From NCBI GenBank assembly GCA_051362555.1, contig CM120640.1, positions 7,316,001 to 7,380,000 on the forward strand: a DNA stretch of 64,000 nucleotides. The letters run 5' to 3'. The notes under the pieces are model-generated. The model had not been told where the DNA came from and did not search any database. It saw nothing but the letters and a program-made list of their open reading frames with translations. Origin of the DNA: Lingula anatina (lineage: Eukaryota; Animalia; Brachiopoda). Numbering within the stretch: position 1 is the first letter of the stretch; each line of letters begins with the position of its first letter. The translations under genes and the position numbers were made by a program. Positions 20,501 to 23,500 of the stretch are shown one piece after another.

Positions 20501-23500
20501 CCTTATTTTGCCTACAGTGCAACTACAAACCATCTGAGGCAGATTGGTCCAGAGAATGTCGCAGTGATCCACTGATTTCCACTGTTGCACTGACAAACTG
20601 GATGATGGTCTTCCCTCAGAGAGAGGCAGCCAAAGCACAGGACTTCTATCAGTCCTTGTGCAGGGTTACTGGACCCTTGGGCATACAAATTAATGACCCT
20701 GCTATGTAAGTGTACCTTCTGCTGAAGATTGTAGTGACTTGCGTTGTATTACATAGTTTAAGCCTGTAAAATAGTTTAGTTAAAGCAATACACATTTTAA
20801 TCTGGTATCTGCTGTATCTTGATAAATAGAAGCTGCTCACAAATTGGTTCTTGTTTATTTCTATGGTCTGCATACTACATTTAATTAGGTTCCAGTTACC
20901 AGATGATAGCACCAACAGGTATCTCACTACTATTAAGACGGAGATGACCAGAGAAACCCAGATGGTTGTGTGCATTGTGCCAAACAACAAAAAAGATCGT
21001 TATGATGCCATAAAGAAACTTGTTTGTGTGGACCACCCAGGTAAATAGCATGAATCAGATTATTGTGCAGTTGAAATATGCACACTAGATATTCAGTTTA
21101 GTTGTTTCAAATTTGTTGGTGTATGTTAGTGTCATGATGCCTCTGCTATTACTGTTATAGTAAGATGCTTCAGTTATTACTGTAAATTACAATGTAGTGC
21201 TGTGATATGATTTAAGCAATAACCATTGAATACATTGCTGTTATTAAAGTTCCCAGCCAGATTATTGTTGGACGTACACTTGCCAAGAAGCAGATGCTCA
21301 TGTCGGTGGCCACAAAGATTGCGATACAGCTGAATTGTAAACTTGGCGGTGAAGCTTGGGCAGTGGAAATTCCGGTAAACTACAAAACCCTTCATTTTAG
21401 TAATTAACATTTATTATTATATATTAAGCTTTGATTTTAATACATCAGATGAATAAAAGATAGTTCATATATGTTAATTAAACCTTCATTGGAGCAACAT
21501 TGTTATGATAGATACAACATAAGTGGCTTTTGATTTGGTATTTGTTTTTTGCACATTTAATATCTTTGTTCACTGGTCTGTGGTGTGATGTCAACTGCAT
21601 TTTCGGGTAGTGGGGTAGTTGTAGTTTTTCCATCTTGTGTGTGTTTAGACTCTGGTCTTTGTGGTTTTTCTTATAAATTGTGTGCTTTGCATATAATTTT
21701 ATTATTATTATTTATTTATTTATTTATTTATTTATTTATTTATTTATTATTATTATTTTTTTTTTATTGAAATCTTTCAGTCCAGGAATATACATATTAA
21801 TAGGTATAGTGAATGCACGCATGCATGCACGCACACACACACACACACACACACACATTTATAGTCTCAAAGGATAAAAAAAAATTGATACCACAAAATA
21901 TTCAACCAAACATACAATGCATGAAAAGACGAGAAAAGAAAAAGGCACAATATATTATTTTTCTGAAACAGATGAATACTAATTAAATTCAATATAATCT
22001 ACCTCTTTCTCTTAGCTTAAGAACATGATGGTAGTGGGCATTGACAGCTATCATGACTCTGCATCCAAAGGTCGATCTGTAGGTGGCTTTATAGCTAGTA
22101 TGAATGCCAGTCTTACCCGCTTTCACAGCAGGTGCACTTTCCAACATAACCATCAGGAATTGCTGGATGGCATCAAAGTGTGCATGCAAGGTAGAGTAGG
22201 GGGTGGGGGTGCAAGTAGACCGCTTTTGTTGTAACAGCCAATTAAGGAAATGTTCTCAACCTTTAACCCATTTCTTAACCCCTAACCCTAACCCTTTTGT
22301 GCACAACATTTCATAGTGGTTCAAACAAAAATACAGAGTAATGTGCTTTGATGTCCAGTGCCAGACTAAATCTAGAAAGACTTTATGAAGTCTTTTTCTT
22401 TTTTTTTTTTTTTCATTTTTCCAGCTATAGCAACCACGTGTCACTACATAAATTTCGATATCATAAAGTTTTTTTATTTATTAAAATAAAATCTTGAAAA
22501 AATGTGTTTTTTAGCTAGTTTTCATCATTTATTTTACTACTCCCCATTTCCTAATTTTGGATTGAAGTATTTTATCTGTTGCAAAATGTGCAACAGAATT
22601 GTGCACAAAAGGGGTGATGGGGTGAAGACTTTATCAGTCTAACACCACCAAAAATGTGATGCAGGGGCCTATATATCTATACAGTATTTGCTTAAAATGG
22701 ATATTTGAGATGTCCATATGTTATATATAGATGTCACTGTATCATGCTTTCTAGAGAGGTAAGTAAGGTTGGCCTTGGGCATGGTTTCTCTCCAGCTTTG
22801 TCTGCTGTTGTGTGTGCAGTAGAGGTAGTATAGCCAAAAGACTTGACAAATGGCACTATTCACATAGTTCAACTTGTTTACTTATCCAGATGAAAAACTG
22901 TATGGTCGTTGGTATAGACAGTTACCACGACTCATCATCTAAGGGACGTTCAGTTGGAGGGGTAGTATGCTCAACAAACAGTTCGTTAACACGATACTAT
23001 TCGCGTGTGTCATTCCAACACTCACACCAGGAACTGGTGGACAACTTAAAACCTATATTATCAGGTAAGGCAAATAAACTCACACTCACATTTTTATGAT
23101 ACTTGGAGACAAATTCAGGTAAACTTGCATCGTTAAATGATATATAAGATGCATTTACGTTATAATTAGTTCAGCTAAATATTTTTATTTTAAGAATATT
23201 ATCATAATGTTTTTTGAAAAAAATGCAAGAATTGAAAGCCCAAAGTTATATTAAAGGGGTAACAACTGTTCATTTTGCAAGAAAAAAAATGATTTTTCTG
23301 GGGCAAAGGACAATTTTTCCATACTTACCAATCGTAAATGCACCATTCCCACATTCAAAATAAGTCCATTTTTTTTTCTGAAAAGGTTGGTTTTTTGTTA
23401 TAATCTCTTAAGGGATAATAAATAAAATAATTGTGTTAACTGCCGTTTTGGGGTAAAATAGAATTTATTGTATATCTGCGGGTTAGTTACAATGTATTTT

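Follow-up and report, generated by a model that had tools for sequence, protein, structure and literature searches.

One Piwil1-clade gene in the window, i.e., the whole 64-kb stretch of DNA analysed here, holds two homologous exons, A and B, whose splicing is mutually exclusive and switches between samples. Both copies are under constraint, and the same event is found in oysters. The account that we favor, with moderate confidence, is that regulated splicing of these old exons gives two isoforms of 875 aa from a single Piwil1 gene, both of them predicted slicers. By sequence comparison, the part exchanged between the isoforms appears to be the scaffold around the glutamate finger, and not the catalytic chemistry.

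Structure of the Gene and of the Exon Pair

The gene has 17 coding exons per mRNA, and its protein bears RG repeats at the N-terminus. This protein is 59–69% identical to its 25 best Piwi1 matches and, in a tree with Piwi2 outgroups, clusters with Piwi1 and not with Piwi2 or AGO proteins. All ten chains returned when exon B was compared with solved structures belong to the PIWI clade. The slicer tetrad, whose DEDH form is defined in PMC7015924, consists of D646, E684, D716, and H850, and is complete with either exon. The features of the locus are as follows:

14553..24696, + strand: coding span of the Piwil1-clade gene (splice-site gene model, open 875-aa frame)
21250..21374, + strand: constitutive exon 5' of the pair (phase 0 donor; joined to A and B in reads)
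22016..22190, + strand: exon A, segment from the first catalytic Asp to the glutamate finger, residues 637–694 (Pfam Piwi; ancestral-type, matching outgroup columns)
22890..23064, + strand: exon B, the derived copy (Pfam Piwi; junction reads)
23574..23727, + strand: constitutive exon 3' of the pair, with the second catalytic Asp, D716 (joined to A and B in reads)

A previous sequence-only reading of this DNA had described A and B as tandem exons of 175 nt with the same phases, AG/GT ends, and no stops. Both copies are confirmed in these respects, with frame 0 open, and both are entered in phase 0 and left in phase 1. Its hand counts are also exact, with 38 of 58 residues identical, 29 of these 38 encoded by different codons, and three AGY/TCN serine switches. 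The two exon-encoded segments are thus identical except for 20 residues, and nucleotide identity is 94/175, with third positions matching at 15 of 58 codons. The frame shift that had been anticipated for transcripts carrying both exons or neither is reproduced by the gene model, where A alone or B alone gives a protein of 875 aa, the two together lead to a premature stop at 22940, and the lack of both leads to one at 23667. According to a self-tblastn of the 64 kb, A/B is the sole duplicate among the piwi coding exons.

Exclusive and Sample-Dependent Use of the Two Exons

Eight of nine species-labelled RNA runs, named here X1 to X8, were mapped on positions 20850–24400, with about 6% (X1–X6) or 25% (X7, X8) of each run being read. 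Runs X1–X3 belong to study P1, and X4–X8 to studies P2 and P3, all of them without tissue labels. Splice junctions of piwi between 20889 and 24383 are present in the reads of this region. The four junctions that the sequence-only reading had singled out for counting all occur, so that each exon is joined to both flanks, and the use of A and B differs by run. The junction reads, in the order upstream to A, A to downstream, upstream to B, and B to downstream, are:

X1: 46/19/6/2
X2: 24/34/2/5
X3: 15/23/2/1
X4: 0/0/7/5
X5: 0/0/8/6
X6: 0/0/9/9
X7: 0/0/4/6
X8: 0/0/10/9

Total junction reads are 161 for A versus 18 for B in P1, and 0 for A versus 73 for B in P2 and P3, although the reads of one run do not represent independent animals, and the true replication is three runs versus five. 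Exon usage cannot, moreover, be separated from study (P1 on one side, P2 and P3 on the other), and there is partial confounding with genotype as well, as the read variants differ by study. Joints from A to B, or skipping both exons, are absent from those listed for X1, X2, X4, and X7 (floor of 3 reads plus 1%) and, with less force because of a floor of 20%, from those listed for X3, X5, X6, and X8, although decay of such RNAs could hide them. With all four junctions present and no double or skipping joint among those listed, the proposal of mutually exclusive use is borne out.

The amount of piwi RNA also differs among runs, with 24–30 constitutive piwi junction reads per Gb in the A-using runs versus 5–9 in the B-only runs, i.e., about three- to fourfold more in the former. 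Exon A is thus detected by junctions only in the piwi-rich runs X1–X3. A few reads nevertheless cover exon A in the B-only runs X5 and X7, indicating that the exon is present in those animals.

In X1–X3, the body of exon B shows a depth of 12–25, which is higher than that predicted by the B junction counts (1–6), and the intron stretch 22516–22753, with a depth of 7–16, is likewise above this prediction. The excess over 22516–23064 could come from intron retention, from a divergent haplotype, or from a copy located elsewhere.

Constraint on Both Copies and Residues Exchanged by the Swap

Synonymous divergence between A and B is saturated (pS 0.97), with a pN of 0.32, and none of 13 fourfold sites is identical. 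At the residues that both exons share, codon matches are below chance (9 versus 14.5 expected, p 0.034). At least 20 exonic read variants are listed, and 19 of 20 are synonymous, including 7/7 in B and 1/1 in A. The saturated divergence and the synonymous variants, together with the junction reads and with the counterparts in oyster and mussel described below, uphold the idea of an old duplication with purifying selection on both copies.

The swap had been described as exchanging half of the slicer active site. The exchange of the exon segment stands, but the catalytic Asp and Glu and the helper His and Ser are unchanged, so the chemistry is not swapped. The first Asp, the finger Glu, His+3, and Ser+11 are kept in all paired A and B copies, including 6/6 B copies; the helper His and Ser stabilise the plugged-in glutamate finger (PMC7015924). 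The PIWI loop, which tunes seed strength in AGO proteins (PMC10240194), corresponds to exon positions 15–21, where A and B of the window differ at one of seven positions. A proline in the helix of B, which had been put forward as an isoform feature, is found in only one of the six paired B copies and is not conserved.

The consistent changes from A to B are Ala27 to Cys, Cys40 to Val/Thr, Leu/Met/Ser50 to Val/Ile, and the loss of KVC at 54–56. Cys27 and the absence of both Cys40 and KVC are common to 6/6 paired B copies, and Ala27 is present in 9/9 outgroup rows. At the positions that are diagnostic between A and B, exon A matches the cnidarian and deuterostome rows, and by this comparison A is the ancestral, slowly evolving form.

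AlphaFold models of the two oyster isoforms both match PIWI structures. In these models, the exon accounts for strands 1–3 of the RNase H sheet, for the finger, and for the beginning of the helix that comes next; the diagnostic A/B positions sit on two of these strands, 2 and 3, and on that helix. This location suggests a repacked sheet–helix core that could shift the behaviour of the finger or of partner proteins. The helix following the finger begins at residue 678 for A and at 685 for B, a difference that is only a hint, as the alignments differed. The swapped module keeps every catalytic and helper residue but would repack the sheet–helix core, and the most likely consequence would be a retuning of the readiness of the finger to plug in, or of the docking partners. 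Among candidate partners, GTSF1 has been reported to engage the PIWI domain (PMC13650160).

Counterparts in Other Species

Isoform pairs are annotated in RefSeq for Ostrea edulis, Saccostrea echinata, Crassostrea gigas/angulata, and C. virginica. In these four oysters, the members of each pair differ at 17–18 residues, all within the homologous exon. The gene model of Mytilus galloprovincialis carries both copies, A and then B, and intron-flanked ORFs include 58-codon exons of phase 0 to 1 in oyster and mussel, along with two more mussel-type B exons. Between oysters, identity reaches 55–58/58 for A, 47–52/58 for B, and 85–91% for the rest of the protein; exon A is nearly frozen, and the drift of exon B is close to that of the remaining sequence. 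In the C. gigas cluster, among the 15 of 32 members listed, B forms are found on 151 contigs and A on 8.

Look-ups in the clusters of 30 proteins, at the level of annotation, gave no exon-swap pairs outside oysters and mussels, and no second copy was found among the annotated proteins of Mya, Dreissena, Ridgeia, and Lamellibrachia. A profile search among cluster representatives yielded further B exons of oyster and mussel type, with no named annelid pair among the top new matches. In the oligochaete Enchytraeus, the exon of piwi1A is B-like, and the proteins of a sister clade have A-like exons.

Several entries found in these searches have peculiarities of their own. The Mytilus model (P0027) is erroneous in that an unrelated N-terminal domain (PF04821) has been joined to it and its copy A is shortened to keep the frame. 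A tubeworm-like piwi fragment (P0346) is labelled Bacillus thuringiensis, which is likewise a database error. The brittle-star-type Piwi1 proteins P0074 and P0085 have Cys27 and Pro55, as in B, and Cys40 kept, and fall outside the B group in the exon trees. Finally, a set of intron-flanked ORFs (P0218, P0220, P0221, P0223, P0237–P0240, and P0245) resembles the oligochaete-like A exon with a different helix end, and might represent a further duplicate exon or a paralog.

Origin of the Duplication

The exon trees, which rest on 58 columns and have long B branches, separate the paired copies by type, six B from six A, with support of 88/86 (LG+G4, 50 rows) and 89/86 (site-mixture model, 49 rows, with the long Potamilus row dropped). 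Five to six gastropods with a single annotated exon each, Enchytraeus piwi1A, and several other proteins also fall on the B side. AU tests reject a duplication restricted to the window (p 0.036 and 0.007), and, in the free tree, one restricted to bivalves withstands the test (p 0.24). When the exon is left out, the window Piwi1 groups with the tubeworm Ridgeia and annelid-type rows (SH-aLRT 96); its placement among bivalves is rejected (p 0.007), and that among all molluscs is not (p 0.17). The phylum labels of the tree rows are those which we take to apply from the species names.

On these grounds, it is quite likely that the A/B pair had one origin rather than several, and the pair probably arose once, before the annelid–mollusc split, with several lineages later keeping one copy. 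Duplication of the same exon independently in the lineage of the window and in bivalves, followed by convergence of the B copies through faster evolution, is a possible but less probable course. With a fixed species backbone and 25 rows, without the unpaired B-like rows, two independent duplications are not rejected (p-AU 0.13–0.36), although one origin gives the best tree under all three models. Identity across phyla is no higher between B copies than between B and A (window B matches bivalve B at 36–39/58, versus 35–38/58 for the A of oysters and 40/54 for that of mussel), Cys27 is also present in ophiuroids, scallops, and one Piwi2-like fragment, and convergent tandem exon duplication is common (PMC9741552); the annotated proteins of the four genera named above that show no second copy point in the same direction. 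However, the paired copies share the same order, the same phases, and the three-part signature in every B copy, and the free trees place the window B together with the B-like exons of bivalves, gastropods, and Enchytraeus.

Splicing Signals and a Possible Mechanism

Two elements close to exon A are candidates for a role in its splicing:

21977..21983, + strand: putative branch-point-like TACTAAT 5' of exon A (read from the sequence)
22191..22230, + strand: weak donor of exon A, GTAGAG, with G-runs after it (candidate element for regulating the inclusion of A)

The first, TACTAAT, is a good match to the branch-point consensus. With regard to the second, the 40 nt after exon A contain 18 G, versus 2–14 at the other 17 donors. 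The donor of exon B is consensus-like, and B is probably the default exon. The weak donor and the G-runs suggest that inclusion of A would require an activator, and nonsense-mediated decay would eliminate the transcripts that hold both exons or neither. A default B, an activated A, and decay of the out-of-frame products would constitute the simplest model for this splicing.

Other ways of achieving exclusivity were also considered. For a Dscam-type pairing of docking and selector RNAs, no pair of arms stands out, and none of the folds at four splice-site regions is significant (z −1.3 to +1.2). With an intron of 699 nt between A and B and an AG-free zone of only 20 nt for B, a distant branch point is unlikely to exclude one exon by steric hindrance.

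The introns around the pair hold several repeats. Positions 22250–22613 carry telomere-like repeats and a perfect 15-nt inverted repeat (22292–22306 with 22599–22613), possibly a small repeat element, whose upstream part could also base-pair with the donor of exon A; the fold so formed is not significant (z −1.1). A repeat element at 23230–23586, in the intron that follows B, has short inverted arms and draws hundreds of partly matching reads on both strands. A CA repeat is located at 21828–21857, ~160 nt upstream of exon A; CA repeats can bind hnRNP L.

Where Each Isoform May Work

Indirect evidence bears on the place of action of each isoform. It makes A, with junctions only in the piwi-rich runs, the likely germline form, and B, which prevails among the listed members of the C. 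gigas cluster, the likely default with broad expression. Piwi of oyster and pond snail is highest in the gonad and present in the soma (PMC6128900), and Enchytraeus piwi1A is broadly expressed, with its paralog piwi1B restricted to the germline (PMC10740902). In the oyster ovary, ping-pong has been attributed to Piwil1 and Piwil2, and in muscle to Piwil1 alone (PMC6128900), a difference that the isoform switch might underlie.

A broader and more tentative scenario is that one duplication before the annelid–mollusc split, or possibly earlier in view of the B-like exons in brittle stars, gave a germline core and a somatic or stem-cell core with different rules for slicing or for partners. If true, such a two-core model would explain the ovary and muscle ping-pong of oysters, and later lineages would have either kept one exon (B in gastropods, A in many others) or split both between the oligochaete piwi1A and piwi1B.

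Alternative Explanations

The two proteins could be nearly equivalent, the switch acting instead on the RNA, through transcript stability, regulation of transcript amount coupled to splicing, or evasion of small RNAs or of gene conversion. The identity of all the catalytic and helper residues would fit this explanation, as would the deficit of codon matches at shared residues and the lack of identical fourfold sites. Nevertheless, the type-specific residues are conserved across species, with an almost invariant A in oysters and a B that differs from it at 17–18 sites in each of them, and this conservation points to protein-level selection on two different optima, making an effect limited to RNA unlikely. 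Somewhat less likely still is that the runs differ in A/B use on account of population, strain, stage, or treatment, and not of germline versus soma. Usage does track study, the read variants differ among the three studies, and the runs bear no tissue labels; against this, the exon A reads in X5 and X7 show that the exon is present in B-only animals, and the A-using runs are those richer in piwi RNA, in line with the gonad being the organ with the highest piwi (PMC6128900).

That B is a weak or non-cutting Piwi, serving mainly as an RNA-guided binding platform, is suggested by its divergence around the glutamate finger, by the Pro that the window B has in the following helix, and by the fly Piwi, which lost slicing through changes in the same region (PMC7015924). 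We regard it as improbable, because the Asp, the Glu, His+3, and Ser+11 persist in every paired B copy, and because the muscle ping-pong attributed to Piwil1 in oyster (PMC6128900) needs slicing in the soma, where B is probably the main form. As for an assembly artefact or a decaying pseudo-exon, it is refuted by the junction reads obtained for both copies, and the saturated synonymous divergence, the synonymous variants, and the bivalve counterparts leave it a negligible likelihood.

Relation to Known Systems

Homologous exclusive exons are a known class, and the oyster isoforms of a PIWI gene with such exons are already present in databases. The closest precedent of this class is the KHK pair (PMC9741552), whose tandem exons are likewise old, in the same frame, and used differentially among samples, with the catalytic arginine kept and conservative changes around it. 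The host in the present case is, however, a PIWI-clade Argonaute, and the word "piwi" is absent from the main text of that article. The X1 and X2 forms of the oyster piwi-like protein 1 in RefSeq (e.g., XP_048752927/XP_048752929 and XP_061189698/XP_061189699) show the same swap of the same exon, but they come from automatic annotation only. In the literature covered, from which subscription journals and bioRxiv supplements fell outside the scope, no description of A/B-type splicing in a PIWI gene was found. In particular, the accessible parts of a survey of mollusc PIWI genes (PMC6128900) hold no passage on the exon swap, and those of PMC12000136 and bioRxiv 2023.06.23.546240 contain no description of a PIWI exon swap.

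Other Argonaute systems exhibit partial similarities. The shrimp Ago1A/B/C transcripts (PMC3510085) also arise from one gene, with differences in their PIWI domain and in the tissues that express them. However, they belong to the AGO clade and differ by the presence or absence of an 81-nt insertion, and not by the exchange of homologous catalytic exons. Swapping the PIWI loop between human AGO2 and plant AGO10 (PMC10240194) illustrates how a small change in the same segment retunes target binding and turnover, but that swap is engineered, and the equivalent loop is nearly the same in A and B of the window, as noted above. Two Piwi1 forms, one broad and one germline-restricted, are also found in the oligochaete as piwi1A, with its B-like exon, and piwi1B (PMC10740902). 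These are two genes instead of two exons, and, with piwi1B compared by its expression, a partition of the ancestral isoforms between them is a mere possibility.

The diversification of PIWI proteins is ascribed to gene duplication; in the present case, splicing lets a single gene exchange its nuclease-domain core. The A and B isoforms represent a natural swap experiment on what sets PIWI slicing, and also a probe of the differences between somatic and germline piRNA pathways in lophotrochozoans. In addition, gene-level measurements of piwi1 expression and phylogenies based on a single isoform mix two proteins in oysters, mussels, and probably worms.

Other Features of the Window

The first coding intron of piwi contains a tandem duplicate of ~400 nt (15229–16087). 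Upstream of the gene, a large inverted repeat at 7068–10913, with arms of ~0.8 kb that are mostly 80–100% alike in translation, resembles a DNA transposon. Further downstream, positions 55143–55475 hold an exon of a sodium:neurotransmitter symporter gene (Pfam SNF).
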